Below, piece by piece: positions 5,541-49,423 of a stretch of 64,000 bases of DNA; position 1 is the first letter of the stretch; each line of letters begins with the position of its first letter. The translations under genes were made by a program, and so were the position numbers. The notes beneath the pieces were generated by a model, which worked only from the letters and a program-made list of their open reading frames with translations, had not been told where the DNA came from and did not search any database. This stretch comes from Amphiscolops sp. MND2022 (Eukaryota): positions 27,466,001 through 27,530,000 of the forward strand of contig OZ076413.1 in the NCBI GenBank assembly GCA_964187785.1. Direction: 5' to 3'.

Positions 5541-5559
5541 AGAATAACGTACTGTTGAT

Positions 5560-7216: not shown

Positions 7217-7585
7217 TCATATCAGGAAACTTGGAAAAACTCCTACTTGATATTTTGCAAAAAATGGATTTCTCAAAATAACACATTTCATTGTTGGGAG
7301 AAACATGAAACTTTCTTCAAATTCCTTGTCATGAATAAAAAATTTCAAAACGATTTCGCCGAGTACTGGTAATGATTTGCCAGAAGCCATCCGAACTGTT
7401 TTGTATTTCGCAATTTCCAATGTTTTCACTACGTTCACATCTGTCATCAGGTCTGTGTAAAGAGAATCTGGAATCGCACTAGAGCACGCACCTGTGAATA
7501 TCAACGAGCGTCGCTGAAGTTTTGAGCTAATTTTCAAGGGTACATAAAGTGAGGTGTCACCTTCTAACGGAGTTACTGCATCCAA
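7217..7585 (-). pseudogene. Retropepsin (aspartic protease) relic
   Basis: SLIFTGACSSAI corresponds to LIDTGA with the catalytic Asp lost; downstream VILRNPFF matches the ILGxxF motif. Confidence 0.85.
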
Positions 7586-19000: not shown

Positions 19001-21053
19001 GAGTGATGATGGATAAAATATCGTCGTTAAATCCTCCCTCGTCAGGATTGGACATTAAGGACACCACAACCGGAACGTAAGAAGTGAACCAAATTCTTCA
19101 AGGATTACTCAAGAAGTCACTGTTCACTGATGACGACTAGAAAGGATCATGATTCCATTTCGTGACAATTGTGTGGACTGATCAACTAAACGATAATACT
19201 AACTGGAACACCCAAAAACTCTTCGAAAACAGAGGTATGCCACTCACCCTGACATTAAATATTCCATTTGTCAAATGAGCAAATTATACTACGCCCGATT
19301 ACCATAGTCGTCCTCACGTGACAGAATTTTGCAACGAGTTTCCTAACCTAATCCTCACAATCAGAGTGATGTCCTTTCTAGTCAACAGATAGAGCGAATC
19401 AAGAAACCAGCTAGCAGATTTCCAAAAAAAATGCCAATAGACCTCCGCGAAGTGGAAGTAGCGGTCGTCACAACAATACAAATTGACTAACTGAATTCAA
19501 CATTGACTGTAATTCAATTGCGTAAGGTGTACGTTCATCTTTCTAACTACCTGACAAACTTTCGCATTCAAATCAGTGCACGATTGCATGACGTGACTAA
19601 AACAAACAAACTTTACCACTATTAACTACTTCCGACTACTGCTGACGTCACTTTCATATTTGCTTACTTAGCACGACCATCTCCACGTTCCGCATACGCT
19701 CAATAATTTCCCTCGAAATGGACGACCGCTACACGCAGTCGTCATTGACAACTGACGACAAGAATCAGAACAAACACAAAGGCAGTCAACGCCCTCACGT
19801 CACAACTGGCTATACCCAGCAATCAATAACACTGAATGAATGAAACCCTAACTGCCTTTCATGCATCACCTACCCCTCTGCTGCTGAATTGTATACCACC
19901 GTACTTACTTGCTCTTTTTCAATAAGAGGGGAAGTGTCATGCCGGACAGCATGAAGGAATCCAACGAGGACTCATTCCAGTCGACAAAAACTCTAACTTT
20001 ATTCTCATGTGAACTAGTATTTCATGATTTATATCAAAGAAAGAACGACTGGCCTATCCCGTCGTCACTCACTTAGCATTTACATGCAGTTCGTCAAATC
20101 CCAATATTCAACATTGAAATCATTAGAGCATCGATTAGTACTTGTAACAGTTAATTTCATTCATCATTCATTGAAAACAACCAAGAGTAGCAATAGTCAT
20201 TGGCATATAGTGCGTCGACTTGCACACTTAGACAAATTCACGTTAACAATCACAAATTTCAGTCGTCATCAACAATTGGTGCGCTGATTTGTACCAACTA
20301 GATTTATGTAAAAGTCTCGTAGCCATAGTTACTACCATAATAATTGGTCGTAAATTAGTCGGTGCTAAAAAGAGGAAAGCTTTATGACATACATCGGTGC
20401 GACAACAGATGCGAAAGTACTCTGATGCCAATTAACGACGACTGAAGTAACCAGTCGTACAACACTTCATGAAGTGATGATTACTGGCTTAACAAGTAAG
20501 CCTGACTAAATAGAGGCATTCAATTAGGCGTTGCCAACGCGCAGCTAAGGATTATGAAGGTGCTATTGCGGTATTGAAACTAACCAGAAGACCATTTGTT
20601 ACCGTGATATTCAGAATTACTGCCTATTTTTGCTATTGAAATCTTCGATGTTCCAATTTAGTAAAATAAACATTATTACCTTCAAAACCTAAATTCACTT
20701 CAATTTGAAACGATAACCACCTCTTTCAACCATGGTAAATACCAGATCGCGAGCTTATAGAGAAAGTAGAATTGGGCAAACAGAAAAGGATAGATTCGCC
20801 GATGACGATAATGACAAAACTAGCGTTGCAGACCCTTATTAACGAATATAATTCCACGAAAATAACGAAAAGACTACGAGGTCTCTGGAAAGAGATCATG
20901 AAAAACACAGGATAAAACAAAGGTTCTCTGAAATGAACAGACAGATTGAGGAATTAACCAAAATGGTAAAAGCTTTTAGTGAAAAGCTGACAAACAGTAG
21001 GGAAGAGAGTGACCAAAACGTCAAAAACATTGAGACGTCGCTGCGTTCTGACA
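16070..21053 (+). mobile_element. 3' portion of a second LTR retrotransposon (element B): internal region, PPT and 3' LTR; 5' part missing
   Basis: PPT AAGAGGGGAAG (19924-19934) abuts TGTCA at 19935. Internal region is A/C-rich and higher in GC than its flanks. No gag/pol motifs found. Left boundary approximate. Confidence 0.65.
19935..21053 (+). repeat. 3' LTR of element B (1119 bp)
   Basis: Perfect inverted termini TGTCA...TGACA, preceded by a PPT. Contains a decayed ORF 20732-21053 (MVNTRSRAYRE...EMNRQIEELTKMVKAF...LRSD, two stops). Confidence 0.7.
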
Positions 21054-22560: not shown

Positions 22561-24126
22561 AACTCAAATTTGATTAAGAGGTATATTTACAATAGGAGGT
22601 CATATCAGTTTTATCGTAGACAAAACAAACAGAATAAACAAAATTAGTTTTTTCTTATTAAATAATCATCTCGCCGTGCAATATTTGAACCAAATTAATT
22701 CGGGAGAAAAAAGGAGAAACACAGGTCGGTCCTCGCTGAAACATGATGCTGAACTGGTAATGACGCGTCGTTTCGCTTCGCTCCTGCATTTACGGCACTA
22801 AAAGTATGTGATCAAAGCTGGAAACGTCATCGTAAAAGTTTATTGATGCTATTTCCGAAATGTGTCTCTGCCCAACCAAATTTGGGAATGCGGTAGTTGA
22901 TCTTCTTCATTAGAACAAGTGGGAATCCCTTTTCGATAATAAACTTTCTATTTCTGCAAATGATTCTCATCTAAATAACGGCGGTATCATGTTCAAATTA
23001 GTTTTCGTTGTTGAAGCGAGTACAGATGAAAAAAAAGAAAGTTATACCAAATATTTTCTCCCAACAATCAGTTTTTTGTTTTCACATTTCGGTGAGAAAA
23101 AAAGGTTTTTTCAATACTGAAAAGTGTGATTGTATTTCTAGTCAAACGTCGAATTAGGATTGAGTCTTTTGGCAATATGATACAAACGAAAAATCTCGTA
23201 CGTATTTTCTCCAACTTTATGTCGCTTACAAAAAAAACAAATGTAAATGATTGCCGTTTTTCCAGTTTTTGGGAAAATAGATCAAATAGTCCCGAAAAAA
23301 AAAAACGTTCAGCAAGCAGATCGACGGACAAAAGCGAAGAAAAATATGCGGTTTTCATATTCTGTTTGCTTGCCGCCTACTTATTATCATAGTTTTCAGT
23401 GAAACGATCCCCGTTTGTTCCACTAGAAGACAGTGACAACACAGCTTGAACAATAGCATTAAAAAGTCAAGAAAGGCTGACTCTCATGAACCTTGTGTAT
23501 TCCAGAACACCGGATATGCCACATTAGGTGGGGAAAGCATATGTTAAAGCACAATGGTATCTAAAGGAATCAAATCTAAACTAATCCCACACTCCAATTG
23601 ACATAGATGATGCTGTTCTAACCAATCATACTGTTTTAGATACTATTCTTTCAGATACTATTCCCGTTTTTGTTTAATATTTTTTATTCAGATAGTTTTT
23701 TTAAATCAATTCAAAGAAGTATCCACTTTCGGGAATGACATCTAAAAAAACGGGAATAACGCCTAAAAAACGGGAGTAACGTCTAAAAAACGGGAATAAC
23801 GTCTAAACCTTTAGACGTTATTCTCGAAAATGATTTAAATTTAGATGTTATTCCAGTTTTTAATTTAGACGTTATTCCTTAGACGTTATTCCCGTCCGCC
23901 GCTGGCAATGATAAGCTATTAGAAACCGGGTCACATTAACTATGAATGGTGTTAAAAATTATCACGGCTGCAAAAAGTTTTTAAGAGCAAAAAATCATGA
24001 AATGTGTGTATATTCGCGTTAGAACTAAGATCCGTATTTGTGATTTCCTGTTTGATTTCCGTAACTTATGTAAAGGACTCTTTTGTGAAAAATTCTAAAA
24101 AGTAGAAAACATCGTGTCGTGGTATC

Positions 24127-24301
24127 GGGGAGCAGGAATAACGTCTAAGGAACAACGTCTAAGGAATAACGTCTAAAGCCAAGTCATGCTCAGTCATGCT
24201 TATTCCCAATCTTAATACATTGGATTTTAGACGTTATTCCTTTAGACGTTATTCCCGAAACACTTTTAGACGTTATTCTTTAGACGTTATTCGCGCCCCT
24301 A
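24127..24301. mobile_element. MULE MITE, 175 bp, TSD CGTGGTATC
   Basis: Identical 9-mers at 24118-24126 and 24302-24310; inverted arrays of motif A. Confidence 0.85.
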
Positions 24302-24323
24302 CGTGGTATCGATGGTGGACGCG

Positions 24324-25258
24324 TAGGGGCGCGAATAACGTCTAAAGGAATAACGTCTAAATTTTACTCATTTTTCGGGAATAACGTCTAAAGATTTAGA
24401 CGTTATTCCCATTTTTTTAGATGTTATTCCCGATTTTGAAATATTGTTTCTTGTGCTGAAAAGTTCTTCCCTTGGTCTAGTTTTCAGGTAATAACGTACA
24501 AAATCCAGAAAAAGCTCCTAAAATATCCGAAAGTCATCGAAATACGACTGAGAAACGGGAAAAACAAATTAAATTGGAAAAAATAAATCGTTTAAGATCT
24601 AAAACTAAAAAGTGATATATAATATAAAACGTGCTTCGGATATGTCCCCATTCCTTCTAGTGCCCCGCGGCCCCTTGGGGCCGCTTATGTTCCCATCTTG
24701 CTAAGCGAGGTCGAACAGGAGCAAAGACCTAGCGGGAACGGAGATCGCGAAGCGATTGTAGTGGGAGCTGGTCTTTGCGACGGTGAGGGCGAGCGTGCAT
24801 ACACCGCATATGCCCCACATTTTGATATTTTCGCTTTCAGCAAGCCTTTTTTGAAACAGGAATAACGTATAGAACTTTAGACGCTAGTCTCAAAAAATGA
24901 TTTATTTTAGACGTTATTCCCGTTTTATATTTAGATGTTATTCCCCAGACGTTCTTCCCGCTGCCACGTATTTTGATGATTTTTTCGCTATTTTAGACGT
25001 TTTTGCCAATCTTAGACGTTATTACCGTTTTCAAACGTATTTTGATCGTTTTTTGACATTTTAGGCGTATGTCATTTTTAGACGTTATTCCTCTTTTTAG
25101 ACGTTATTCCGCTTTTTAGACGTTATTCCACTTTTTAGACGTTATTCCCGTTTTTTTAGACGTTATTCCCGTTCATTTCAGATTTAGATGTTATTCCTTT
25201 AGACGTTATTCCCGGTGGACTTTTAGACGTTATTCCTTAGACGTTATTCCTGTTCCCC
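24324..25258. mobile_element. MULE MITE, 935 bp, TSD GTGGACGCG
   Basis: Identical 9-mers at 24315-24323 and 25259-25267; motif A TIRs; GC-rich core at ~24627-24820. Confidence 0.85.
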
Positions 25259-25267
25259 GTGGACGCG

Positions 25268-25716
25268 GGGGAACGGAATAAAACCTACGGAATAAGACCT
25301 AAATCGAAAATAGGAATAAGTTCTCAAAATTTAGGTCTTATTCCTACTTTTTGGAAAAAGACCTATTAACGGAATGAGACTTGAAATCCGGAACAAGACA
25401 TAAAAAAGTGGGAATAAGACCTAAAAACGGGAATAAGAGCTAAATGCGTAATGAGATCCAATGGTAGAACGGAATAGTATTTAAAGGAATAATATCTGAA
25501 GTTTTTTAAACTGTGAAACGTGCCCCCGATATTTCCCATTTCCTCTAGTGCCCCGCGGCTTGAAATGGTTTTTTTAAAATAGTTTTTTAGGTCCTATTCC
25601 GCACTTTAGGCCTTGTTCCTGGTTTTTTAGGTCCTATTCCACTACTTTTGAGTTTTAGGTCTTATTTCTTTAGGTCTTATTCCTTTTAAACATTTAGGTC
25701 TTATTCCCGGTCACCA
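25268..25716. mobile_element. MULE MITE, 449 bp, motif-B subfamily
   Basis: Termini GGGGAACGG...CCGGTCACCA; flanked by GTGGACGCG and GTGGACGTC (7/9 match). Confidence 0.7.
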
Positions 25717-25865
25717 GTGGACGTCAAGGAGGAACCGGAATAACGTCTAAGGAATATTTATGGAATAAACTACTGAGGACTTTATATAATGTCTAAGGAA
25801 TGACGTCTAAAAATAATCAATTTTCGGAAATAATGTCAAAAGTTTTAGACGTTTCACTTTTTAGA

Positions 25866-26884
25866 GGGGAACGGAGTAAGACCTAAGGAATAAGACCTAA
25901 ATCGAAAACGGGAATAAGACCTAAAGTAAAATTCATTTTTCAGGAATAAGACCTAAAAATTTAGGTCTTATTCCTACTTTTTGAAAGAAGACCTATTAGC
26001 GAAATAAGACCTAAAGTGGGAATTAGACCTAAAAACGACAAACAAGACCTAAAAAAGTGGGAATTAGACCTAAAAACGGGAATAAGACCTAAATGCGAAA
26101 TGAGACCCATGGGGAGAACAGAATAGTCTTTGAAGGAATAATATCTGGAAATTTTTAAAGTATGAAACGTGCCTCTGATATTTCCCCATTTCCTCTAGTG
26201 CCCCGCGGCCCCTTGGGGCCGTTTATGTTCCCATCTTGCTAAGCGAGGTCGAACAGGAGCAAAGACCTAGCGGAAACGGAGATCGCGAAGCGATCGTAGT
26301 GGGAGCTGGTCTTTGCGACGATGAGGGCGAGCGTGCATACACCAGATATGCCCCCACATTAGAAGAAAGTACTGAAAATTTTGTGAGACATTTACAAAAG
26401 GTGATATTTTTTTCTTGAAAAAAATGATTTGAGATCTGACTACTTTATAAAATCAATGGGAGGAAAAAAATAATGATGAAAAATTTTTATTTAATGTTTT
26501 TTTTTGTGTTGATTGCCTCAATTTCTTCTGCTGGAGGTTTTTTCTTTTCACGTTTTGCAATATTTTTCGATGCCTAATGGTTATCTGTGATGATTGCCTC
26601 AATCCCCAGATTCTGAAATAAATTTTGGCCTTAATTTTTTTTTTAAGAATAGTTTTTTAGGTCTTATTCCCTATTTTAGGCCTTATTCCCTATTTTAGGC
26701 CTTATTCCCTAATTTAGGCCTTATTCCCGTTCCTGTTTTAGGTCTTATTCCCGTTTTTTAGGTCTTATTCCGCATTTGAGGTCTTATTCCTGTTTTTTAG
26801 GTCTTATTCCACTACTTTTGAGTTTTGGGTCTTTCCTTTAGGTCTTATTCCTTTTGACTTTTTAGGTCTTATTCCCGGTCCCCA
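25866..26884. mobile_element. MULE MITE, 1019 bp, motif-B subfamily, TSD CTTTTTAGA, nested in the TIR of a motif-A element
   Basis: Identical 9-mers at 25857-25865 and 26885-26893; termini GGGGAACGG...CCGGTCCCCA; core at ~26164-26359. Confidence 0.85.
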
Positions 26885-27387
26885 CTTTTTAGACGTTATT
26901 CCTGTTTAAATTGAACTATATATATTTCTGAATATTTTTTCGCAACGAATAGCTGACTTACAATTCAAACAATAATGGGTCGTGTCATTGGTACCAATGG
27001 CTACGGTACTCTTAATCCGTGGAACAAGCTCAATATTTGACGTTTCGTGAATGTCTTAAATTTATACGGAGACCGGGAATAGTATCTAAAACTGAATGAT
27101 TGGACTCCAAATGTGTGGAATATGCTGTTATTGTTGTGTGTGCACGCTCGCCCTCACCGTCGCAAATACTACCTTCAACTACGATGGCTTCGCGATCTCC
27201 GTTCCCGTTAGGTCTTTGCTCCTGTTCGACCTCGCTTAGCAAGATAGCAACAAAAGGGGCCGCGGTGGCACTAGAAGAAATGGGGACATATCCTAGACAC
27301 GTTTATACTTTATAACACCCTATAGTTTTAGATCTTAATTGCATTTTCCCCGATTTTATACGTTATTCCCGTTTTTCAAACGTATTA

Positions 27388-27677
27388 CACTCAACTCCGG
27401 TTATAACGATTGCCCGGGACGGCGTTTTTCAATCGTCATATCCGAATATCGTTATAGGCGAAAATCGTTATATTCAGGAAAAGGATTGTCAATGTATATT
27501 TAAGCTTTTCGATCGTTAAACAGATCATCATCAGTTACATTACTTGTCTGTTATATGAAAAAAAATGTTATATACTAGCATCGTGACCGGGACCGTGAAA
27601 CTCTTATCGCTATATCCGGAATATCGTTGTAAACGTAATACCGCTGTAAACGTAATCGTTATAAACGGAGTTGAGTG
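27388..27677. mobile_element. Tc1/mariner-type MITE, 290 bp, TA TSD
   Basis: TIR CACTCAACTCCG(G/T)TTATAACGATT at both ends; TA at 27386-27387 and 27678-27679. Confidence 0.85.
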
Positions 27678-27932
27678 TATGATGGTTTTTTGATATTTGG
27701 TACGTTTGTTTTCGATTCTGGACACTTCCCGATTCAGACGTTATTCCACTTTTCAAACGTTTTTCATCTTTTTAGTTTAGATGTTATTCCTTCAGACGTT
27801 ATTCCCCGTGGATCCTTAGACGTTATTCCCGCTTCTGAGCATTTCGGGAGTAACAAGTAAAGTTTTAGACGTTATTCCTGTTTAAAAAATTGGACTTTCT
27901 GAAAGAGAAAATATTGAATTTTTTCCAGACCA

Positions 27933-28529: not shown

Positions 28530-30409
28530 TGCATGTTATTTCTGCTTTGTGAGACTTTTTTTCGCAAATTCTTTCAATGTCCCCAAAGGGTCCCCCTTCA
28601 TTTTTTTCTATTTTGCAAAAGAATGGATGTTAAAAAAAATCTCAAAGTGCCCCCCTTTTACAGTTTTCGGCATTGAGAGGTTTTCCAAATCGAATAATTT
28701 TTGTCTTAAAATTAGGTTTTCTCAGGCCCAGCACGGTATATCCGATTTTTGTACGCTATATCCGATTTTTGTTTTTTTTTCAAGACCGCTGTTTTTTCTA
28801 TGCGACTTTTTTAGGAGTCGGAAAAAATTTTCGACTACTTATGCAATCGTGCTGTTTTTTTTCTCCCGACCTTTTCATGAAAATTTCAAATTTCTCAAAA
28901 ACTGTCCATACGATTTTCACGAAATTTTGCAGTCATTCTACACCCAAAGGGGCCCCTGCGTGTGCAAAGGCATCAAAATCGTATGGCCTGGATGTGAGAA
29001 ACATAGCCAAAATTAGCCCAAAAATGGCCAAAAAACAGCCATTTTTCGATTTTTTCACAAACTGTTCATACGATTCGAACGAAAGCGAGTCAGAAGGAAA
29101 AAGACTTAAGCCGACTCCTTTACCGCATATGCGGCTCTGGTCTAATTTGTTTTCATCGAAGCCCCTCAATTTTTACTAGAAACGAAACGTTTTGCGAGCA
29201 TAAAGCACTGCTCAAGGTTTTCGGCTCTATGCGACTTGCCGGAGACCTTCATCAAAAAAATTTTCGAAAATTTTTTTCCTCAATTTTCTGTTTTTTAAAG
29301 GTTTACGGTTGAGAAAGATGGGTTTTCTGTTGTTTCCAGTTGGAGAATTGTTTTCAAGATTTATGGGTATCCCTTCGGGATTTTTTGGCGTAAAATTGAT
29401 GAAATTTTAACAATGTCCTTTTACCCTTGGCTCTCCGTATGATATTGCTTATTTGGGTTTCTTCAAAAGTTCGCAACTTTCTTCGCAAGTGTTTGCGAAG
29501 CACGGCTTCGCGTCTGTGTTCAATCTTTCATATTTTTGGATTCCATGAACTTTATAATAATGTGTCGTCCTATTGATTTTCTCCGCATTTTGGACGTTAT
29601 TCCCAGGTTTAGGCGAAATTTAGACTACCTCCACTGGATTTATTGTCACTTTACCTCTACTGGATTATATTGGTTTGCCAACTTTGGTCTGTCTACTTGG
29701 ATCGTGGCTGGCATGAGTAATGAACCTTTCGATTCACATTTTCCCTTGTTTCACCTAGTTTGAAGACCACGGGTGTGTGCCGTCATCCCCTAACATGATT
29801 ACCAACATCAATAACGACCATCTTTCATCTAAAAAGAACACAAGCCAGGAACGGCCCAAGTCGGCACCCGCTCGAAGTTGAAACAAGCCGGGAACGGCAT
29901 AGATCGGCGCCATATCTAACAAAATTTTTCGAAAAAGTCGATGCCGAAAAATTGAAAGGGGGACCCTTTGTGGATAAGAATTCGAAGTCTCACAATGCCG
30001 GAAAAACTGAAAGGGGGACCCTTTAGTCTCGCCCGGTATTGTATGTTACCCGGAAAAAAGGTAAGACCTTTTTGGTTCAGTTCGTTAGGCCAAATGCTTC
30101 AATTTGACACCCATAAAGATCCATTAGAACTATTTTAGTCCGTTCGCGTGGATTGAAAGAAGTGAAGCGCCGACTAAAAACCAAGTTTGATAAAAATGCA
30201 ACAATTTATCGAAGTTACAGTGCCGGAAAATACCCGAACGAATATACCCATGAGATTCGAAAACCGCTTTTTCCTAACGAAGTTTTTTCTTCGGAAAAGT
30301 CGCAGTGCCAAAAGAGGAGCGTTATCCTTGGCAAACGCTTTTTTCACGCCGATATTGATGAAAGTGAAGAGGGTACACATTGAGCAAAGAAAAATTTCGC
30401 AGTGCCAAG
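28530..30409. repeat. Copies of an abundant interspersed repeat family with AACAAGCCGGGAACGG..AAGTCGGCGCC termini
   Basis: 28806-29030 matches 60126-60345 and 63945-64000. AAAGGGGGACCCTTT motifs; termini at 29840 and 29882. Span includes some unrelated sequence (~29480-29840). Confidence 0.75.
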
Positions 30410-30738
30410 AGGACTGTAACAGCTGGAACATTACTATGCTGAGGACAAATGAACTAATCAAACGAACTTTTTAACTATTTGACCTTAAAGCTATTTTACT
30501 TATGACAAAACTAAACTTTGAACTATTTGATCATCTTCAAACAAATAACTAATATGATTTATGAATAGAGAAAACATCAGTGCTGACTATAACTCGACAA
30601 CTGCATCGTTGTGTCTTCTCTAAGAAAAATAGAAACTAATTTGGGGATTGTGATCCATGCTTCGAAGACTTGAGTGCTCTCCATTCCTGCATCCAGCCGC
30701 CAGCCATGAACATATATCTTAAAAGGAGGAATATTAGT

Positions 30739-30756
30739 TGTTGACAGGAGTAGGAT
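30739..30756 (+). promoter_or_regulatory. PBS of element D (tRNA-Leu-like)
   Basis: TGTTGACAGGAGTAGGAT, 15/18 identical to the common tRNA-Leu PBS TGGTGTCAGGAGTGGGAT; abuts the LTR end. Confidence 0.65.
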
Positions 30757-30799
30757 AGCGAATCTGAGCTTTCAATCAAAGGTCAAACTCCCGGTACCG

Positions 30800-33193
30800 T
30801 AAACATGACAATGACAAACTTTAACATCCCGAATGTTGTAAATAACAAAAGTGTACCGGATGTTGATAAAAGTTTGGAATCACATCTCTTGTGATCTTTC
30901 AACAATTCACAGACCCCGCCCAGAAGTACGCAAAGTGACATTCTTGCATTTGAGGTCGATCGAACTAGTTGATGAAGTATTCTTTCGACAATTTTCCATT
31001 TTACTCCTTTTGAAAGGTGAAAAGAACACAAAGAAAAACGGATCTATTTGGTTTTGTTCCTACTGGTTTTCTTCACCCCTGCTTCAGTTCGAAGTGAGTG
31101 GCTTTCTAATTTAGAAGCCTCCACTGATCCGAATGAAATCCAAGAAAAGGGCGTTTTGTTCCATGAATGCAATAAAATCTTGCGGAGAAATTTATCAAAG
31201 TTGAATTTTTAGTTCCATTTCCGACGTATGACTTCGAACTTTAACCAGATATTATTGCCTTAATGGCCAAGCTTGCATCGATGTGGGAACTTCCATCAAT
31301 CTTTTGTCCAATAGATTTTTCTAGTCAATTTTCAACAAATTCAACGCCGTTAATGTTACCTGGATGTTAAAACAAATCGAAACTGACATCCACACCGCCG
31401 AACTCGATGTTGCCCTCCTACGTAATTAAACTGCGATGTTTCTCTCCTCTCCTCAGCAGCCACAGAATACTCGCCACCGACGTGGATTCCATGTGGGATT
31501 TGCGGCTCTTGCTGCCGTCGGACTTTAAAGAGGAGGAGTGGCTATTGGCAATTCAGACATCTGTGGCCTCCAAGGCATTTTTGGTTCCTACCAAGACGAT
31601 GCGAAAGCGAATGCCGAGATTATTCGCAAACTGTCTGAAATCCAGGACGTTTTAACCCAGTTTATAACTGAATTCACAACATCTACGGACGAAAATGTTT
31701 TATGGTAGAAAATGAATTGGCAGCCCTTCACGACATTCAACAGCAGTTTGATGTTTTTGAACATATATTTCACGTCCTTCGGGACTGCAATCTGCTAATT
31801 TTTTCAAATCAGCAATTGAACTTCAACTTCGACACCCTTTCGTCGCTTCTCGTTGAAATATGCAAGTGTTAAGAGCTATCGCGCGGCCTTATTTGCATTC
31901 CGTATGAACATCCTAATTAGATTCCAGTCATACCCAAAGGTCATCTGCCTATGTCCTTGGCACCAACGGAATCGTTATTGGCTTTTCTCCGAAGTGTTGC
32001 GATGAAACAGACGACGGCTGACGATAGACTCTTATTATCCCAATGTCAGATCTGATGTCTTACTTCGATTCCAAGCTTTAGCAGATGCTCTAACGATTGA
32101 CGAAGGTCTTGATAACCCTTAACATCCCGCTAGCATCTTAGCAGACTGTTTTTGATGTCTATGAAGCAAAATTCTTTCCTATGCCGTATCCAGACGATCC
32201 CCAGTCGGCTCTTACATGGAACATCGAAGCTCCATATTTAACTCTATCAGAGGATCATTTGGAGTCATCGGTCCTCTCTGCAGAACATTTTGAGCATTGT
32301 CTCGGCTCATCCCGTTACGGAATCTGTTTAAAGTCTGTTCCAACAGAGATGGGACACTCATCTTGTTTAGCCACCTTGTTTTCAAGTACAGCTTCGGAGG
32401 CTCTTGTTGTATGTGATTATCATTGTACAACTGCCAGCCATTGAACAAGCAACAAATTTAGGCTATGGCATTCAATCCGCTCACGCTGTTATCCTTCGTG
32501 TAGTTTCATCTTCATCTGTTCAGGGCTCTTCTCTTCGTGGATGCTGCATCTGTCTTATCACATTAGCATGCGGAATGCAAATCATGTCTGACAACATCCA
32601 AATTCGGTCGGATCTATCAAATTATGCTCATGTTCCACGAATAAAATTGCAGGTTTCTGTCTAATCCTGTCGTTTCATTGGTTATGGGAGCTATTTACCG
32701 TTCTTTAGAAGAATTACCGTTCTACACATTGAAGTTATTGAAGGAGGTAAAGCTACAGTTAGCGAAAGGACCAAAGAATCGTGAAGTCAAACATATCGAC
32801 ATAGCAAGACCATATGCATCCGAAATGAAACTACTGAAACCAGACTTAACAAAAGAATTTAATAAGTTCCATTCCGAATCTCATTCATACTCACAATAAC
32901 TGTTGATTGTATCAGCTTTGCACTTGCTCTTTATGTACGTTTATCATCGATACAATCTGGCATCGGAATTGTTTCCATCTCTACTTGATAAAAATAGAAA
33001 AAACGTTCGAGCTAAGCCCATCATGAAATTGGAAACAACTGATGCTCATGATGAGGATAATTTTCACACAAGTTTCGGCGGTATATACCATCTTTCACGA
33101 TCACAATCAAAAATGAATCTAAACGAACCATCTACATCTGCTAAATGCGATCAGGTGCATCAAATCTCAATCATCATCACAAATCTGAGCTAG
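30800..33193 (+). pseudogene. env-like class I fusion glycoprotein, frameshifted and with stops
   Basis: RHRR|GFHVGFAALAAVGL*RGGVAIG (furin site plus fusion peptide, from 31472), heptad-like segment, Cys-rich region (CLGSSRYGIC, CCICLITLACG), hydrophobic TM-like segment LIVSALHLLFMYVYHRY near 32903. Confidence 0.75.
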
Positions 33194-36100
33194 CAACTCC
33201 CTAGTTACAACTACTCAAACGCTCCCCGATAGAGGTGACTATGAAGCGGACCATGCCGACATCAATGCTTGACTTCACGCTCCTTCAGTTCAATCATTCA
33301 TTCATCATTGAGACTGATCAAAACATTTTTTCCATATATTTTCTGCAGTGATATGTAAACTCTAAATGCGGTAATCTTTGGTTCTACAATATTCAACTGG
33401 ACTGGATGAAATATAAACTTTATCACAACTACATGAAATTGGGACTTGTGCTGCTCCCCGGCTCCTCAAAAAGAACAAGTGAAACTGGAATACTCGGTGA
33501 CTTCAGCTTTTATCATCTTCGCTACACTATTCCTCGGACTGCATGATGGCTTTTTCCAGACGTTTTTCGATGAGAGGAAGTGTAACAGCTGAAACATTCC
33601 TATGTTGAAGACAATGAACTATTCAAACGAACTTTTTAACTATTTGACCTTAAAGCTATTTTTTTTCTGACAAAATTTTAAACTTTGAACTATTTGATCA
33701 TCATCATCAAACAAATAACTCTAATATGATTTATGAATGGAGAAAACATCAGTGCTGACTTTAACTCGACAACTGCATGGTTGTTTTTTCTCTAAGCAAA
33801 ATAGAAACTAATTTGGCGATTGTGATCCATGCTTCGAAGACTTGACTGCTCTCCATTCCTGCATCCAGCCGCCAGCCATGAACATATATCTTAGAAGGAG
33901 GAGTATTAGTAGGACCCTGTTGTCTCCCCTTTAATTTTGAAAGCGCATTTTTGAGGCTTCGAGCGAGCGAAGCGAAGCGACGAAGTCTCTATTGTTCCGC
34001 GTTTACTAGCGTTTTGGTTTTTTTTTCGCGTGACATACCCTCTGCATTTGTATTAATTGAAGGCTATTTTCTCAGAGCCTATTTTTCCGCGACCATCCAA
34101 ACTTTCCAAAAAGAAACGCAACTTGATGCTCTTTCTAACCGTGTAAAAACTTTCCGAAAATTTTCCACCGGCGCGATTTTATTAGCTTCGAAAGCGCGAA
34201 ATTTTCGAAAATTTTTGGGGTTTTTGTCGATTTTGCTATTTTTCTTTTCACAAACCACAGCGAATTGGCCCGATGTAGGTACTAACCGACGTAAAACGAT
34301 GTTTTCTTTAATTTGGTGAAAGTTTTTTTATCCTAGAATTATTGGGCTTTGCGAAAATGACCATTAAAAATAGGAAAAATTTTCGGTTTTTTTGCGTAAA
34401 AAATTTCTCAACCTATTTTCAAGTAGCAATCAGTTCTAATCCAAGCAGTGGTGTTTCTACTCGATAACAGGTCTGCTTAGCTGCCCAAAGTTAGAAATTG
34501 GAAAGTCACAACGTTTACGTCGGACAGATAGAGACAAAAAAGTTTTCAAATTTTTTGAATTTTTGATAAATTGCTCTCTTTATTCAATTTTGTAAAAGTT
34601 TTGGCCTATTTTCTCGGAGCCTAATACTTCGAGACCATCCAAAAAGTCAACAAATTGTTGGAACTGAATTTGTTGGTGAAGATTTAAATGTTGTTGGATT
34701 TTCGGGCAGTGAGAAAATAGCGATTCAATATCGAAAATTTTTTTGGAACATAATTTTTTTCGAAAATTTTGGAGCTTTCACTAATTTTGCTCATTTCTAC
34801 ATTACAAACAACGTCGACCCGGCATAAAATACGTCCTATCCGACTTCTTTCACATGTTTAAAGTTTCAATGTGCTACATTTTTTGGTGGTTGAGAAAATG
34901 GCGATTGAAATTCTGAAAATTTACGTTTTTTCCCAATTTTTTCCAAGCTTTTTTCTGTTAATAGTTCTGTTCATTTTTGATTTTTTGGCCGTTTTCTCAC
35001 AAGGGATTGCTTCAAGACGATTCGAAAAACAGCAATATTTTGTTCTTTAGCAGTTTTTCCAGAAATTTTTGGCCGGTGCGTATTTATAACGAAATACGAA
35101 AACCGCAAATTTTTTTTTTTGCAGACTTTGCTCCTTTCCTGTAATCAAACCACTTGGAACCGCGGCAGTGTAGGAACTGACCGTCATTCAGGACTGTGAT
35201 ATTAGCCTGGATAAAAGAATTCATTGATACGCGAATTTGCCGTCGAAAAAACTGCGATTGAAAATTCTTCCGAAAATAGTTTATGAGCCGATTTTTACTA
35301 GTTATCGGTTCAATGGGATCTCATATCATTTCCGCTCAAACCATATAGTCCTAAGACTGTAGGCGGAAAGCTCGAAGCAATTAGATGCATGCGGAAAGTA
35401 CTCGAATAGACGAGATAAATGCGCTGTGGAACGTCTTTCTACGCAAATTTGGGTTTTTTCTCAAACAAACTTCATACATTAAAGGTCGTTCGTGGTGCGG
35501 GCCTTCTGATTCTTTTCGAGTAATACTCGGATCGCAATCAGTAAAACGAGAAAACCACCCACAGGTCGTTAAAGGTGCGGGCCTACTATTCTGTGAGGAA
35601 TAGTGAAACGAGAAAACCGGTTTATGAGCACATTACGAGGTAACGTCCAAAATTAGCATTTGGTTCGACTGTTATAAGATTATATCTTATTCAAATGTTA
35701 AATCGGTTATTCAAATTCCTGTTTTTTCGTGGATTGATTAGTTATTGATGATGTGGTTGTTTGAAGCGTACAACCGCGAAATTTCCGTTCTTAACGTATT
35801 CTATCCAGTGAATATCTGCACAGAAGGTATTATGCATTACCGCAATATTCCTGAGATTTGATGTCATATGCAACGATTAAATCAAGACAACACTAAGTTA
35901 TATTCACACCTCGCTGTGCAATGATATTCAACCACGTTGTATTGAAAACAAAAATGATTTCGGATCTTTTCGTGATTTTGCCCCATTCGCAAATTTTAAC
36001 AGGTTATTCATCCTCTGGAATACGTTTCCAACGGTGCCCACTGATGCTGGAAGGTTGTTTGATGCACAATTCAGCTAATTTTTAGAACTGAAAGTATACT

Positions 36101-37319
36101 TGCTAGTGATGGCACATATCAACCGTCCTATTGATAACTAGGGCAGCCCTTCCTTTTATATAGTGGTAAAGGCCGAAAAAGTTGAGCTTCATAGGATTAA
36201 TACCCGCAATTCTTTTCAATTTCATTGTATTTTGAGCATTCTCGTGCCGTATATAACCTTAGCTATTCGTCATAGCTAATAACTTGGTAATATGGTTCAA
36301 ATGCACATGATGATAGTCAATTATGGCTGCGGGACCTGTCGCTCAAAGCCGTGCGCAAATTCCTTTGCGCCTATGTTTTTATTTGGTGCGGGGCTCGAGC
36401 CCACGTTTCTCAAACCGCAGAAAATTTAGGTTCTTCTCTGGGCCAAGTGGCAGTTAGAAGTTACTGTATTAATTAGTTATTAAACCTGTCACTTCGCGTG
36501 TTTTAAAAAAGCCATTGCTATCGTCGGCTTTTACTTCGTATTCCCACATAACAATGTAGGCTGTTTTGTAGGCCAAAAAAGTTCACCGAAGGGTGCAATT
36601 GGATACTCAGGTCGAAAAAATCGATTGAGAATTCATCCTATTGCTGTTAGAAACGTCAGTAGGCCAACTTGTGTTTCGCCCATCCTGACAAAAGACAAGG
36701 CTGTAAGGCATTTGTAAACTTGGGGACGTAGTCCAGAGATTAATCTTACAGCATGCTTTGATTCTGTGGGTCCATTTCGCTCAATAAATCATTTCATTTT
36801 CAATGATTCTTTTTTCCAGATTCATTCAAATGTCATTTATTTTCTGAGAATATTTGAAATTTCTTCAAATTGTCTGCGAACGGCCTTCAAACTATCCATC
36901 TTTTATGTCAAAGTGTAGTCACTGTGCGTTATATTATTGTTTACCTGTTCTACATGGGTTGCAATCAAGACGGCCAACAACTCCAATGAAAATGTGAACT
37001 GTATAATGCGACAAAGACAATTGTACCGCCGAAAGAAGGTTGATACATATGGGTCACATATACTCCATCTAGTGGAATCACACACTAACCAACAACGACC
37101 TTTTCCGTGGAAACCCACTATAAGCACCCAGAAAGCACAGACTTTTATACCTCATCTACATTGACGTTAAAATGATTGTGAAATGATCGAGAGTCGTGCC
37201 GTCCTGAACTGAAGGGAATATCCGAGGACGATGTCCGAAATGTGAACAATTGCTGGTGGCACTGCTGAAATCATTTGTTTCAACTTAACTTTCTGAATGT
37301 TTTTCGAGTATTGAAGATA

Positions 37320-37733
37320 ATGGAGTTTGAGAGAATAGAGGGTCGACGAAAGGGGTCCACGTTATTTTGTGCTGATGGTTACATCTATACCAAAAATAAT
37401 GAATATAAAGGTAAAGTTAATTTAAGATGCGCAGCCTACAAAAAGAATTGTACAGGAACTGCTTACATTGACGTGGGAATGCTTTTCACGAACAAGCCTC
37501 ATAACCATCCCAGAAATTTTGAAGAGGTTGAGAAAATCAAAGTCGAAGCCCGAATCAAAAAACAGTCCGAATCGTTGACAAAGACTCACCGCGATATTTA
37601 TAATGAAAATACTCAGGCTAGCAATGTTGAGATACGCAGTTTTGCCAAAATATCTTCTGTAATGCGGAAGCGCAGGGCCAATTCTTTCCCCAAAGTTCTT
37701 AACAAGCCAGAAGATTTTTTATTGTGGTTTTAG
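37320..37733 (+). CDS. FLYWCH-type zinc-finger ORF (137 aa): truncated MULE transposase N-terminus or derived gene
   Basis: DGYIY...LRC....NCTG....HNHP pattern, then IYNE...ISSVMRKRR..FPK, as in MULE transposase N-termini. No DDE domain seen. Confidence 0.6.
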   Translation: MEFERIEGRRKGSTLFCADGYIYTKNNEYKGKVNLRCAAYKKNCTGTAYIDVGMLFTNKPHNHPRNFEEVEKIKVEARIKKQSESLTKTHRDIYNENTQASNVEIRSFAKISSVMRKRRANSFPKVLNKPEDFLLWF

Positions 37734-38430: not shown

Positions 38431-38791
38431 GGCGGTGTAAACTTGTACAGTGATTAATTGTGCTCTAAGTAATGATTAAACAGGAGTGTATTGGTATTCC
38501 AGATATGATTCTTTTATTAATGATTTTTTGTTTTAAAAAAATAAAGATTAAAGCAGAAATAGTACTGAGCCCCGGAGGGGCCTATTTTTCAAAAAATGTT
38601 TGGAATTGAAAAATTACTGCAGATTTTTGGGCTGTAAAATGAAGATGAAACAGATAATGTTGGAATTGGCTACTTTGATGCTTTTAATTTAACTGTCCAC
38701 AGTACTTCAGTTTTCACTGCGTTTATTTTTCTAGATTATCGCATGGTCGGTCTTTAACGTAGTAACCCGCAAGGTTGTTCATGACCTGACA

Positions 38792-40426
38792 ATGTCGGTT
38801 GAAGCTTCTTACGTTGGGTGTAGCAGTTGCTGTATCTCGAGTTGTCGAGAGGAAGGCCAGTTGCTGTACGTGCCAGTGCCATTGAGTGTGATCAACGAAG
38901 CTATTGACAGATCAAATGGGGAAAAGTTTTCAGTTGTGGTCAACATATCCCTTGAAAACGAACCTAAATCTCCTGAGAGAAGCCCGGTTTCCATTACAGA
39001 TGTTGGTACCCTTGATGAAAGGAAGGACAGTCTTAACAAGAAATTGTCTGCTAGAAGAACTCCCAGCGAGCTAAGAGATATGGGAATCCTATTATCTTCG
39101 CCATGTTTCCAAGCTGGCTCAATCCTCCAGAAATCACACGATCTTGAACGAGCGCGTGTTGGAAATCGTCTCTCTCAGAAGTTGAAATTGAGACCGGATA
39201 AGGATATTCTGGTTTCCCATAATATACTACGAGGATCCAATTTGGAACCCTTTGTGACTCAAACTCACAACAAGCTGAAAAGAAAATGGATTGAAGAGCA
39301 AATAGATCACTTCATTGCCAACAGACCCTTGCCTGAGAGCATACCGCACAATATAATGCACAGTCCAGCAAATGCTTCAAGTTCATCTGGAGGTATGGAG
39401 CAACAGTCATCAATTACCGACGGCCGCGTTCAATCGCAGTCTCAACGTCAGATGAGTATCTCAAATGTTCCTTCTCCACCTCCTTTACCGGTAACGATCA
39501 ACACTGATAACAAAATTAGAAGAGCGGTGACTAGTACTACATCCATTATTAAATCTGGAGGCTTCATATTCCACGAAGCTAGCCCCGAAGTTCGAACCAA
39601 TGATGAAATACGGAACAAACAGCAAGCTGTTATGGATAAAATTCTAAATACATCACCATCTTTGGATGCGGAAGTGTCTCAAATCTATCAAGGGATGACT
39701 GTGCCTGATTTGAAAGCCTTGTGTCGTCAGAGGGGTTTTACCGTGAGACAGAAAGCTACTAAGTCCGAATTGATTAAAATGCTAATGAACCAAGAGGAGG
39801 CCAAGAAAAATACTCGAGTAAGCCCTCCTACTGAAAGCCATGTTCAAAAAAGGGTTAGCAAACCGATGCCCAAAATAACCAAAGAAGAAATCAGTAAAAT
39901 CATAAATAGAGTACCATCATCGTCATCCCTTAGTGGTCTAGCCCAACTGTCGCTGGGCAGTCCAAACCCAAACTCAAACCCAGCCTCAGTTCAAAGTGCT
40001 CAAGTGCCATTGGTCTCACCGCCGTCGATTGCATCTGTTCACGAGCCTTGGTCTCTGCCTAATATAGACATGGTAGGATGTCGTCTGCCTTCGGAAGGCA
40101 GCTCAATGTCTGCGAATGATTTAGATATGATGGCAGATCAGCAAAGCATGTCTAGCCATTATAACGTTGATACAACGACTTTTCACGATAATCACTCCTG
40201 CATGAACGTTATGCAGTTTGATTCCAGCACTCAGTTCGTACCTAATTCAGATAATTCCACTACTTGTGCATCGTTCTATGGGAACGAGGACTTATTAGAT
40301 AGTAATCAAGAATTCTTGGTTTTCAACGAAGACGGAAAAACTTTCTTGGATAACTGCAGCCCCAATGCTTTCGAAGATTTACTTAACATGTCTCCGTTGA
40401 ATTCCGTCGAACCGTGCAATTTATGA
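38792..40426 (+). CDS. MRTF: Myocardin-related transcription factor-like protein (3 RPEL-like motifs plus SAP domain), single coding exon, 544 aa
   Basis: LNKKLSARRTPSELRDMGIL, LSQKLKLRPDKDILVSHNIL and IDHFIANRPLPESIPHNIM; SAP MTVPDLKALCRQRGFTVRQKATKSELIKML; acidic C-terminus. Confidence 0.85.
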   Translation: MSVEASYVGCSSCCISSCREEGQLLYVPVPLSVINEAIDRSNGEKFSVVVNISLENEPKSPERSPVSITDVGTLDERKDSLNKKLSARRTPSELRDMGILLSSPCFQAGSILQKSHDLERARVGNRLSQKLKLRPDKDILVSHNILRGSNLEPFVTQTHNKLKRKWIEEQIDHFIANRPLPESIPHNIMHSPANASSSSGGMEQQSSITDGRVQSQSQRQMSISNVPSPPPLPVTINTDNKIRRAVTSTTSIIKSGGFIFHEASPEVRTNDEIRNKQQAVMDKILNTSPSLDAEVSQIYQGMTVPDLKALCRQRGFTVRQKATKSELIKMLMNQEEAKKNTRVSPPTESHVQKRVSKPMPKITKEEISKIINRVPSSSSLSGLAQLSLGSPNPNSNPASVQSAQVPLVSPPSIASVHEPWSLPNIDMVGCRLPSEGSSMSANDLDMMADQQSMSSHYNVDTTTFHDNHSCMNVMQFDSSTQFVPNSDNSTTCASFYGNEDLLDSNQEFLVFNEDGKTFLDNCSPNAFEDLLNMSPLNSVEPCNL

Positions 40427-40576: not shown

Positions 40577-40651
40577 TCGCCTAGTGGTTAGGATGCGCGC
40601 GCACCAAGCAGGAGGTAGTGGGTTCTAACCTCGGCGAGGATTAAAATTTTT
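40577..40651 (+). mobile_element. tRNA-derived SINE head (same family as 28445)
   Basis: TCGCCTAGTGG A-box, GGTTCTAACCT B-box-like, ends AAAATTTTT. Confidence 0.55.
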
Positions 40652-45353: not shown

Positions 45354-46384
45354 ATTAAATTCCAAAATTATTTCTGCTCCGGGAAATCAGTACGGAATTT
45401 AAAGATCGGAATTTTGTTCAAATATGAAAAAGTAAAACGCACAACACTGATCACTAAACAGATGTACAGTAATTCATAATGAAGTCATCAACAAGACAAG
45501 ACAAAATCAACTGATTCTTCTTTTTCAAAGAACGATTCTTCAGCAAAAGTTTCAATACTCTATTGAGTTTTTTTTGGTTGTTTTTGAGTTTTAGCACAAA
45601 ACATTGCATCAATCAAAAACATTCAAAGTTTCAAAATGCGCAAATCTTTCAAGTATGCTTATAAGCCGTTTTCAAGAAAGTCCAAGTTGATCCTGGAAAA
45701 GTTTGTATAATGACCACCTTCCCTTTCACCAAAACACTCTGGCCACTTGACTAACCAGACCTGTAATACGCTAAGTTATAAGTTTAGTTGAAAGATTTGA
45801 AATGATAGATGAAATTTCATTCAATTCGTGGGATCTCACTGTATTTTCCTTTTTCTTTGCTATAAAAATACAAAAGTTGAGAATTTTCAGCTGTCCAAGT
45901 AATATTTAAGTTGCCTTTCGATTAATATTATCGCAAACGACTTTTAATTGTAGTGAATTCTCGCTCTTCCTCTCATTTCTTGTCCTGTAATGCATTCATG
46001 TCCCAAGAATGCATTCAATGCTCTTCTATGCGCCTCCTGTTAAGCTATAAACGTTTTTCACGGATCATCTTAAGCTCGGTTTAGTATATGCAACAAAAAT
46101 ATGCCACTTGATGTATTTATCAATGCTTCAAACAGATAACACGGAAAGTGACATCAAAAATTAGAAGCGGAATTTTGGTTTGTGGACATGCTCTGTATTA
46201 TGAACTGTTTGTTGTCTTTATCAAAATTATGCTCATTTAAAACCTCTAATGGCTTTACTCTCGCTCGGAGTGATTTTAGATGCAATTTTCAACTATTTGT
46301 TTTACATGACTGCATGAAATTTGTTAATTTTTTTCAGATAATGTGACGAATTTGTGCTTAGCTTCCGTGAGCAGCAGTTGTTTG

Positions 46385-48953
46385 ATGTTTGAATACCCCG
46401 TTGTGGATATCTCTGAAACTGAGTCGAAAGCATTCTCTGAAATTGCCGCACCGAAGAACGCTAGTGCGAAGAAATCCTCGAAGCCAGAACTAATCAAAAG
46501 AGTTCAGTTCGCGCGCACGGTTGAGGTTTTCAAAATCAGCCCTGTGAAACTTGCTGACGTTTCTGATGACCACCATGCCTTTTGTTTTGCCCAATTAGAG
46601 AGTGATTCTGATGAGAGTGTCTCAAACGATGAAGAATTCGCGGACTGTCCAAGTCCTGTTATTCCAGGCAAGTCTTCACCTGTGACTCCGAAAGTTGATG
46701 CATCCGTCAATGAAATTGTGCAAGGGAGAATAAAGGTACGTTTATTCTCCGAAAATGGCGAATATGAGGGAGAGCAAGATAACCCGTGTATATCCAGTCC
46801 ACAATCTTTGAACCAAATGGACCCGGAAGATGGTTTCGTCTCTTTTTCTCAGCTTAGTTTGCTTTTTGACGAGACGTTCAACTCACAGCCCAAAAGTTTC
46901 ACGAATGTTTGCAATGAGACCTCGGAGAAAGTAGTATGTCATTCAGAATACTTACGAGGAAATGAGGACAATGCCCAACAATCAAAACTAAACGAGTCGC
47001 AGCTTCCTGCTCCAGAACTCGAAGAGGTTGAACCCGGTCATAGAAGTGGAGAAGACACACCAGATGTTGAAGTTTCCGAAAGACCGGCGGTTGATTCCGT
47101 TCACTCCAGGCGCTTAGAATTATGCGTTGCTGATGATGACGTTGACAATGGGTCCACAAAAATAGACAAAATAGAATCATTTGAGATAAATGAAGTTGGC
47201 ATAGATGAGGGTACTAATTCGCCCACCATAGACAATGAAAAATGCCAATTTCTTTGTCTTCACTCTATTGCTGCTGATGAAAGCAAAGAATCCTATGAAA
47301 AGAACGTTAAACTTTTGCAAGATCTGGAAGAATCGGAAAGTGACAGTCATAAATTGCTGCCTCCAGTAGAATCGGAGAAGCCGGCTTTCGTAGGCTTCCG
47401 CACTGCCGCTGGAAAAACCGTCTCGTATTCGAAAGAATCTGAGGAAAAAAGCAGGAAACTTTTGCAAGATCTGGACGAAACGGAAAGTGACAGTCATAAA
47501 TTGCTGCCTTCAGTAGAATCGGAGAAACCGGCTTTCGTAGGCTTCCGCACTGCCGCTGGAAAAACCGTCTCGTATTCGAAAGAATCTGAGGAAAAAAGCA
47601 GGAAACTTTTGCAAGATCTGGACGAAACGGAAAGTGACAGTCATAAATTGCTGCCTCCAGTAGAATCGGAGAAACCGGCTTTCGTAGGCTTCCGCACTGC
47701 CGCTGGAAAAACCGTCTCGTATTCGAAAGAATCTGAGGAAAAAAGCAGGAAACTTTTGCAAGATCTGGACGAAACGGAAAGTGACAGTCATAAATTGCTG
47801 CCTCCAGTAGAATCGGAGAAACCGGCTTTCGTAGGCTTCCGCACTGCCGCTGGAAAAACCGTCTCGTATTCGAAAGAATCTGAGGAAAAAAGCAGGAAAC
47901 TTTTGCAAGATCTGGACGAAACGGAAAGTGAGCAAAATAGCAAGTGTTCATCTCGAGGTGAATCTAAGAAACGAGTGCTAGTTGTATCATGTGCTGAGGA
48001 CACTCTAGAGAGACGTGCAGTCAAGCAAGACTCGAAGGAAAGCATTGAAAATGAGCTCGTTGGCCTTCCCAAGCTAACTGACCATGATAGTATTGGTCTA
48101 AAAACGCCTCTTGTTGTCGAGCCACCATTTTCAGTCCGTGGAAAATTAATTGCAGGAATGACACCTGAAAACCTAAAGAATATAAATTCCGTACCTTTTG
48201 AACCCAAACCATGTGTTCATACGCCTTTTCCTTCTAAAAATAGTCATCCTCCAAACAAAGAGCTATTTTTCAATGATGAAGCTAAGCCAAGTACTGTTAT
48301 CAGTAGTTTTGGAACAGCTTCTTCGAATACCAGTCAACCTGCTTATCAATTGAGAAGTCGTTCCAAGTCGAGTAAAACTTTCAAGAAACCTCGGTGCTTG
48401 TTTGAAATTGATGAGAAAGATTCAATAACTAGTAAGAAAGATGAAAATTCCACCAGCGTGGCAGAAAAGGGATCCGCAGCGAAGAATGCAAAAACTTCTT
48501 GCGAATCTAATACTTCGAAATCAGTTGCTGGTAAACGGGGTTCGACTTCCAAATTTAAATCTCCCGTGATTGCTGATAAACTAGTCCATGGCACTCATCT
48601 GAAAATAAATTTGAAAGAGTCTACAAATTCAACAGAGTCCACTGCTATATCAAACAAAATGGGCAGAATATTGAATATCAGAACTCAATGTTTGATGAAA
48701 CTGGCTTTCGAAGATCTTGCTGTGATAAATGATCACCGCACATCTAACGCAAGAATGGCATGTACGAAAGTTTATTGTATTGCTAAGAACGTGGTCTCAG
48801 GGTACAATTTTACGTTTGGAGTGGATGAGTTTTTCTCTCCGAAAGCTGTATCTACCGGAATTGTCTATATTGGTGATAATGCTGAGTTGAATATCAAAGG
48901 AAAGAAAACAATTGGCCCCCTTGATTTTCATCGTGCCATGTTGACTATTCCAG
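46385..48953 (+). CDS. BRCA2: BRCA2 homolog, large exon (acidic N-terminus, BRC array, start of helical domain); 5' end uncertain, exon acceptor at 46337
   Basis: Four FRTAAGKTVSYSKESEEKSRKLLQDL BRC motifs; ...LDFHRAMLTIP|G; donor CAG|GTGAGT. First in-frame ATG at 46385; an upstream coding exon cannot be excluded. Confidence 0.85.
47310..47931 (+). repeat. Coding tandem repeat, 147 bp / 49 aa x 4.2, each unit one BRC motif
   Basis: CTTTTGCAAGATCTGGA at 47312, 47459, 47606, 47753 and 47900; only a few nucleotide differences among units. Confidence 0.98.
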
Positions 48954-49423
48954 GTGAGTTACTGAGTTGGAACCAAAAACAGATTCGAAATACGTGAATT
49001 CAATTGGCAGATTATTGAAACATATTCGATTACTTGAAAGAAATCAACTCAATCATATCCAAGGCGTAAACTTATTTCTAGCGCTTTTCGCTATCGTAGT
49101 TCAGTCATAAAAACGGTCAATTCCTATTTATCTACATTATCTACATTTATCTGTAACGAGCACATTGTTGGTCAAATTCTGATGAAAATTTGAGTGACTG
49201 GGTTTGACTCCGTCGTATAATAAATTAAACTTGTCGAACATTTAGTGATGGTCTGAATATTGTGAATATTTAGGCTGTGATTCAGGTGGAAAACCAAAAG
49301 GCTATAATTTGAACTTTTGCTAACTGCCTCCTAAAAGTTGGATCAATCGCATGTGATTTCTGGACCCATAACGGAGCACTTAAATGATGGCTAATTGAAT
49401 GCATTGACTAAATTTAATTTTAG

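Follow-up and report, generated by a model that had tools for sequence, protein, structure and literature searches.

How does a long terminal repeat (LTR) retroelement come to carry an envelope gene (env) and no other recognizable gene? The question is raised by a stretch of 64,000 nucleotides (nt) from Amphiscolops sp. MND2022 (assembly GCA_964187785.1, contig OZ076413.1, positions 27,466,001 to 27,530,000 of the forward strand), referred to here as the window, in which an LTR element bounded by two full LTRs occupies positions 30415-33910 of the + strand. A preliminary description had interpreted the element as an env satellite, mobilised in trans and possibly supplying envelope to env-less helpers. 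According to our analysis, it is a real env-only LTR element that is now dead and most likely represents the fossil of a spliced env message. In its specific form, namely that a spliced subgenomic env RNA was reverse-transcribed and integrated in trans by an errantivirus-like gag-pol-env parent, we give this proposal about an even chance of being correct.

A candidate splice junction upstream of env

The sequence in front of env was compared with that of P0006, a database protein whose env N-terminus is ~86-91% identical to the window env and whose env Met is preceded by 44 in-frame codons. The comparison used a degenerate codon profile derived from the protein. For codons 1-39 there is no relation to the leader in the window (score 14.7 at a shuffle mean of 16.2, with 69/100 shuffles as high). 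Over the last 14 nt before env, from the AG at 31032-31033 up to 31045, the window is compatible with P0006 at 14/14 positions. The two upstream sequences, which differ from each other, join env at a common point about 12 nt ahead of its start, and the upstream context changes sharply at this AG. P0006 has a different context upstream of env, as a full-length parent would be expected to have.

The AG at 31032-31033 likely lies where a splice acceptor would be expected. At the junction the window reads ...CACAAAG/AAAAAC..., where P0006 encodes Gln (CAA or CAG) following Tyr-Thr-Thr-Pro. AAG is a usual exon end, and the Gln codon would fit a pyrimidine-rich CAG acceptor if its third base is G. 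In the parent, the donor would have been located after the position corresponding to 31033. Host genes in the window show GT...AG intron boundaries with TAG/CAG acceptors, as judged by eye. In insect endogenous retroviruses (ERVs), the env transcript is typically subgenomic and spliced, and connects env to an exon that lies either before gag or inside it (PMC12992720). The claim of the preliminary description that the element was non-autonomous and moved in trans is plausible, though the better argument for it is the junction at a likely splice acceptor and not the reason given at the time. The TSD (target site duplication) and cis signals had been taken to indicate that the element integrated as a unit; a deletion after insertion would leave TSD, primer binding site (PBS) and polypurine tract (PPT) in place just as well, and these signals alone do not show movement without gag-pol.

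The envelope gene

Env was identified through P0005, an intact database protein of 781 amino acids that can be aligned over its full length to 31045-33269, with 597/733 aligned residues identical (81%). Identity is 80-89% over most of the length, as opposed to 36% in the last 55 residues. In addition to the frameshifts and stops listed in Table 1, the window copy has several in-frame indels, among them deletions of 15 and 6 codons. A 122-residue piece of env had six relatives among 438 candidates, P0005 being the best, and a second piece matched 225 clusters at E<=0.001 in a library clustered at 50% identity, 150 of them among the matches listed. The env homologs drawn upon below number 156. 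With 82 member sequences in the P0005 cluster and 14 in that of P0006, the env family appears to be abundant and intact elsewhere, as judged from database proteins.

The assignment of env to the F-type is suggested by a number of signals that are individually weak but agree with each other. In P0005, hydrophobic stretches occur at about residue 2, at 151-154 and at 639-649 (starts of the scanning windows) and the motif RHRR at 145, which together correspond to a predicted signal peptide, furin site, fusion peptide, transmembrane segment and tail. The Pfam family Baculo_F was matched by 5/35 aligned longer homologs chosen from the 156 (best E 1e-6); P0005 itself gave no match to this family. 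Baculo_F or Fusion_gly is found in Atlas neighbours at 0.95-0.96; the recognition of 1485 lies below the guide value of 2300. The best sequence match in PDB is annotated as 'fusion protein' (E 0.0026).

As an observation on the family, protein P0010 combines an env N-terminus that is 97% identical to P0005 with a weakly macrodomain-like sequence (Pfam Macro, E 0.037). It is probably a rearranged or nested copy.

Age and decay of the copy

The two LTRs agree at 303/323 aligned bases (93.8%), with 4 gaps and a Kimura two-parameter distance of 0.065, corresponding to 3.1% substitutions per copy. From this age, 13.6 env indels (range 3.7-34.9) and 2.8 stops were expected; we counted 13 frameshifts plus several in-frame indels, and five stops. 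The earlier statement that this copy has decayed is borne out by these lesions, and because the damage to env matches the LTR age, env was probably intact at insertion.

The same conclusion was approached through conserved residues, defined as those kept in at least 60% of the env homologs. Nine of 104 (8.7%) are changed, compared with 7.2% expected (P=0.33); variable positions differ at 18.7%. Since conserved residues are no more changed than the LTR age predicts, purifying selection acted on env until roughly the moment at which this copy was inserted. Its source would then be either a working element directly or a lineage that needed env. An env drifting for long as a passenger was rejected on the same figures.

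Element boundaries and cis-acting signals

The features of the element are compiled in Table 1. The preliminary description had given two LTRs of ~325 bp, a perfect 5-bp TSD at both ends and a PPT directly before the 3' LTR, all of which we recovered. The exact duplication of AGGAC at both ends has a probability of ~0.0007 as a chance 5-mer match at fixed boundaries. The left flank is part of a host repeat, and the two flanks, when joined, resemble the GGGGACCCT motif of that repeat, which is seen seven times elsewhere in the window; this rejoining is suggestive only and lends modest support to the boundaries. Four purine runs of at least 9 nt occur in the interior, the PPT being one of them.

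The cis signals had been called intact, which was an overstatement with regard to the PBS. It does adjoin the 5' LTR as described, and, compared by eye, its last 9 nt are identical at 8/9 positions to the end of a Leu(UAG/AAG) tRNA. Over 12 nt, however, there are three mismatches, and because the site starts with TGT instead of TGG it does not match the tRNA CCA end. The tRNA ends used here were taken from supplement 1 of PMC13524379. ARAGORN called 0 tRNA genes in the window, which left no host tRNA for a comparison with the PBS. By eye, a tRNA-like stretch, possibly derived from a short interspersed element (SINE), is seen at ~40580-40640; ARAGORN did not call it.

Both LTRs end in ATTAGT (30733-30738 and 33905-33910) rather than in CA. 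If this is a family trait, it would represent an unusual integrase attachment end.

There is no poly(A) at the element. The alignment of the two LTRs extends over their entire length, and the TSD is immediately adjacent. Rfam gave 0 matches at E<=1 over 30000-34300. A second copy of the element or of its junction was found neither in a self-comparison of the 64-kb window nor in the protein searches.

Table 1. Features of the env-only LTR element, in window coordinates
Feature	Position	Strand	Remarks
Left TSD	30410..30414		AGGAC
5' LTR	30415..30738	+	324 bp; TG...GT ends
PBS	30739..30756	+	degenerate, tRNA-Leu-like; TGT start instead of TGG; adjoins 5' LTR without spacer
Leader	30757..31033	+	putative exon 1; five ATGs; without coding signal or detected gag homolog
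Junction	31032..31045	+	candidate splice site; P0006 similarity begins at AG (31032-31033), ~12 nt before env start
env	31045..33272	+	F-type (class I fusion), complete but broken: 13 frameshifts, 5 stops, start codon region damaged
3' segment	33273..33571	+	env stop to PPT; without Pfam or protein match
Duplicate	33433..33538	+	diverged duplicate of ~120 nt preceding env in P0006; may be a pol end or a cis element
PPT	33572..33580	+	GAGAGGAAG; 9 nt; adjoins 3' LTR
3' LTR	33581..33910	+	330 bp
Right TSD	33911..33915		AGGAC

The interior outside env

As the stretch to be searched for remnants of gag and pol, the preliminary description had named 30757-31400. With env starting at ~31045, this leaves 288 nt rather than 650 for the leader, where Pfam found none, and the interior outside env consists of these 288 nt and a 3' segment of 299 nt. 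Pfam gave no match at E<=0.01 for the whole element in 6/6 frames. In the 12 frames of leader plus 3' segment, a threshold of E<=10 returned only one domain of unknown function (DUF), at E 0.11. As a positive control, another element of the window, a decayed gypsy element, did yield integrase and RNase H domains in the same scan. A protein search for gag in the leader, which covered 1/3 frames (that of the first ATG) and proteins of 136-2000 amino acids only, gave two candidates, none of them scoring, and is weak evidence. The corresponding search for pol in the 3' segment (1/3 frames) gave five, again none scoring. Stop codons are not rarer than in shuffled sequences, neither in the leader (P 0.54) nor in the 3' segment (P 0.20). 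When the 156 env homologs were used in tblastn, no convincing match was obtained in the leader, and in the 3' region only the tail of P0005 itself stood out. Gag and pol domains are lacking in this copy, and with them the gag and protease-reverse transcriptase-RNase H-integrase set by which a Ty3/gypsy element is defined. A linked pol of the parent was not recovered from protein searches or from GTDB scans, the latter being uninformative for an animal.

The description of the interior as env-only holds insofar as Pfam detects no gag or pol and P0005 aligns end to end. It needs amendment in the 3' segment, which matches the env-upstream sequence of P0006. The match to 33433-33538 extends over ~105 nt with a score of 41.9 (shuffle maximum 28.0, 0/100); when the first eight codons are left out, it narrowly exceeds the shuffles (23.4 at a maximum of 23.2, 0/200). 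The homology stops where env starts in P0006. On this comparison, the sequence before env in P0006 has its diverged counterpart before the PPT in the window element.

Origin of the element

For the proposed copy of a spliced RNA, the parent would have been an env-carrying, errantivirus-like LTR retroelement expressing an F-type env from a singly spliced subgenomic RNA. This RNA would have retained R-U5, the PBS, a short leader, env, the 3' untranslated region (UTR), the PPT and U3-R, gag-pol having been removed as an intron. One such RNA would have been packaged by Gag/Pol supplied in trans and reverse-transcribed into a two-LTR DNA. Integration of this DNA, which would have given rise to the 5-bp TSD, would have preceded the damage to env; neutral decay would have followed. 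The event would have been a one-off or of low copy number. Because a singly spliced RNA keeps the PBS, the PPT and both R regions, its reverse transcription would yield exactly the anatomy seen here. We also count in favour of this proposal that close env relatives (the P0005 and P0006 clusters) are numerous. The route would have been retroviral and not L1-dependent, since there are two full LTRs and a 5-bp TSD and no poly(A); a processed pseudogene made by L1 is ruled out by the end-to-end LTRs, the directly adjoining TSD and the same lack of poly(A).

Several points weigh against the proposal. The 14-nt match at the junction, taken alone, scores 17.7 and is not above the shuffles (maximum 18.4), and the junction argument depends on one protein, in which the third base of the Gln codon may be A or G. 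It has to be considered that the case was chosen for its env-only look, which biases the breakpoint towards the env start. The leader contains an acceptor-like pyrimidine-rich stretch of its own (~30990-31015), as well as the five ATGs upstream of env. Protein searches with one frame each of the leader and the 3' segment gave no gag or pol relative, so that the gag-pol-env parent with the same LTR is a putative one. Simple splicing does not predict the duplicate at 33433-33538, which the parent would have had to carry natively. It may equally well be native to the parent's 3' UTR. If it is a pol end, the 3' part of the element would stem from a lineage whose pol extends up to the PPT, either an env-less sister or an env-before-pol parent. 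We regard the duplicate as the main unexplained feature and, at the same time, as the best support for the idea of a split genome.

That idea can be put in two forms. Env could have been transduced into an env-less sister element, whose shell would have contributed its leader, spliced to the env acceptor on the 5' side, and, after a template switch on the 3' side, its pol end (33433-33538), PPT and LTR. An env satellite would result, with the same LTRs as env-less gag-pol helpers. Transforming retroviruses capture genes in a comparable manner (the oncogene-capture model). The 3' segment is homologous to the P0006 env-upstream sequence, which would be expected of the pol end of an env-less sister, env was selected until insertion, and the env tail is far more diverged from P0005 than the rest. 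Env-less derivatives have moreover arisen repeatedly among insect ERVs (PMC12992720). This account shares the claim of a splice junction with the spliced-RNA proposal, but it needs two events, the duplicate shows no pol signal (no Pfam or protein match, and stops no rarer than in shuffles), and the window contains no second copy or helper, its gypsy element at ~3000-7500 sharing no sequence with the env element. We consider it unlikely, with a minor though real chance. To an amplified env-only satellite that originated by splicing or by transduction into an env-less gag-pol sister's shell, kept a selected env and traded it for Gag/Pol in trans with an env-less sister, i.e. a bipartite retroelement in an invertebrate, we concede a small chance; selection on env until insertion and the duplicate before the PPT would be compatible with it.

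Splicing would be dispensable if a gag-pol-env element simply lost its gag-pol in a deletion across a 2-nt AG microhomology, either through template switching or once it had been inserted. Internal deletions are the commonest route of gag-pol loss in LTR elements, they leave TSD, PBS and PPT in place, and the 15- and 6-codon deletions in env show that this copy has suffered other sizeable ones. The breakpoint would, however, have to fall by chance on an AG within ~14 nt of the env start, for which a rough estimate is a few percent even given the env-only look, and we rate the explanation as improbable to a similar degree as the bipartite element. An env-first parent would make the leader-env joint native, and the lost gag-pol would have lain after env and before the pol tail at 33433; this would account for both the failed gag search in the leader and the pol-end-like piece before the PPT, and elements of the order ENV-GAG-POL are reported from two mite genomes (PMC13524379). 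Against it, a segment of this kind also precedes env in P0006, which would require two gene orders among close relatives, and the reported non-canonical GAG-ENV-POL elements have a gB-type env (PMC13524379). We see only a slight chance for this parentage.

Other features of the window

A decayed Ty3/gypsy-type pol is located at ~3000-7500 on the - strand (Integrase_H2C2, E 1e-10; RT_RNaseH, E 9e-8). As a helper of the env element this neighbouring gypsy gag-pol element was rejected, as the two share no LTR, leader or 3' sequence. Further candidates for retroelement sequences, seen in translation on the + strand, are a GC-richer stretch at ~16000-19500 with a YADD-like motif at 18276, possibly a reverse transcriptase of a long interspersed element (LINE), and a gag-like start from 20732. 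The region ~23700-27900 is satellite-like, with 14-20-nt units in both orientations, and possibly a foldback element or one resembling miniature inverted-repeat transposable elements (MITEs). Near-identical tandem duplications (97-100%) occupy 9963-13432 and 1102-2402, with periods of ~1734 bp and 1001 bp; they are either recent duplications or assembly artefacts.

Three genes or open reading frames (ORFs) lie downstream of the env element on the + strand. The FLYWCH zinc-finger ORF at 37269-37730 is presumably the remnant of a Mutator-type transposase, and a MRTF/myocardin-like ORF with RPEL and SAP domains extends over 38735-40423. The BRCA2 gene (46328-51045) has within its BRC region a 147-bp tandem array of 4.2 copies with 98% identity (47309-47931), which suggests a recent expansion of BRC repeats. 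The RPEL/SAP and BRCA2 genes mark the host as an animal.

Comparison with known systems

Non-autonomous LTR elements such as LARD, TRIM, MaLR and ETn keep LTR, PBS and PPT and depend on Gag/Pol in trans; they form amplified families whose interiors are non-coding or gag-derived. The window element resembles them in lacking gag and pol and in having kept its cis signals, but differs in that its cargo is env and in that a single copy was found in the window. Among open-access publications, as judged from titles and the beginnings of abstracts, no amplified env-only LTR family was found described, and the passages compared from PMC5766633, PMC10152393, PMC7642597 and PMC3621094 contain no precedent for one.

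The closest relatives in layout are the errantiviruses in the broad sense, i.e. env-carrying Ty3/gypsy elements with an F-type env (PMC13524379, PMC12992720), which show the same succession of LTR, PBS, env, PPT and LTR and the same env features. Priming by tRNA-Leu is common among them, and env is spliced in the insect members; the PBS here is tRNA-Leu-like but degenerate. Two LTRs, a tRNA PBS, a PPT and a short TSD, by which such elements are recognized, are all found, albeit with the degenerate PBS and TG...GT ends. As errantiviruses have gag and pol, we file the window element as an errantivirus-like derivative and not as a member. The parent may also have belonged to BEL/Pao or to another LTR group with an F-like env: lokiretroviruses (PMC7947760) and roo-type BEL/Pao elements are LTR elements with an F-like env as well, both being defined by reverse transcriptase phylogeny and the former being reported from vertebrates, whereas the window element has no reverse transcriptase.

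If the element is a spliced copy, the env mRNA of an F-type errantivirus-like element from outside the insects would have been preserved in it as a genomic fossil, from which the exon structure could be read, and this would imply that such elements splice env and package spliced RNA. This point is not addressed by PMC13524379, whose main text has 0 occurrences of 'splic' or 'subgenomic' and does not mention non-autonomous copies; acoel terms have 0 matches in its seven supplements. The survey required pol next to env, and env-only copies would not be listed. Surveys of this design miss spliced copies and env satellites alike. Should the element instead belong to an amplified env satellite whose helpers lack env, it would provide a natural example of a split retroviral genome, relevant to the gain and loss of env. 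Domesticated fusogens or restriction factors, moreover, usually derive from env-only copies that have LTR promoters, although the copy in the window is dead.

DNA copies of viral RNAs that may lack introns are known from the HERV-W pseudogenes made by L1 (PMC5537654). These have truncated R-U5 and U3-R LTRs, poly(A) and TSDs of 5-15 nt, in contrast to the full LTRs and missing poly(A) of the window element. A nearer parallel to the proposed spliced env copy is the HERV-K(HML-2) provirus ERVK-17 at 10q24.2, interpreted as a spliced RNA that was reintegrated 'in a retroviral fashion', with an intron-like internal deletion as proposed here (PMC3590776). In ERVK-17, the deletion lies within env (rec-like), whereas in the present case gag-pol is gone and env is whole, in an invertebrate host and with an env of the F-type.

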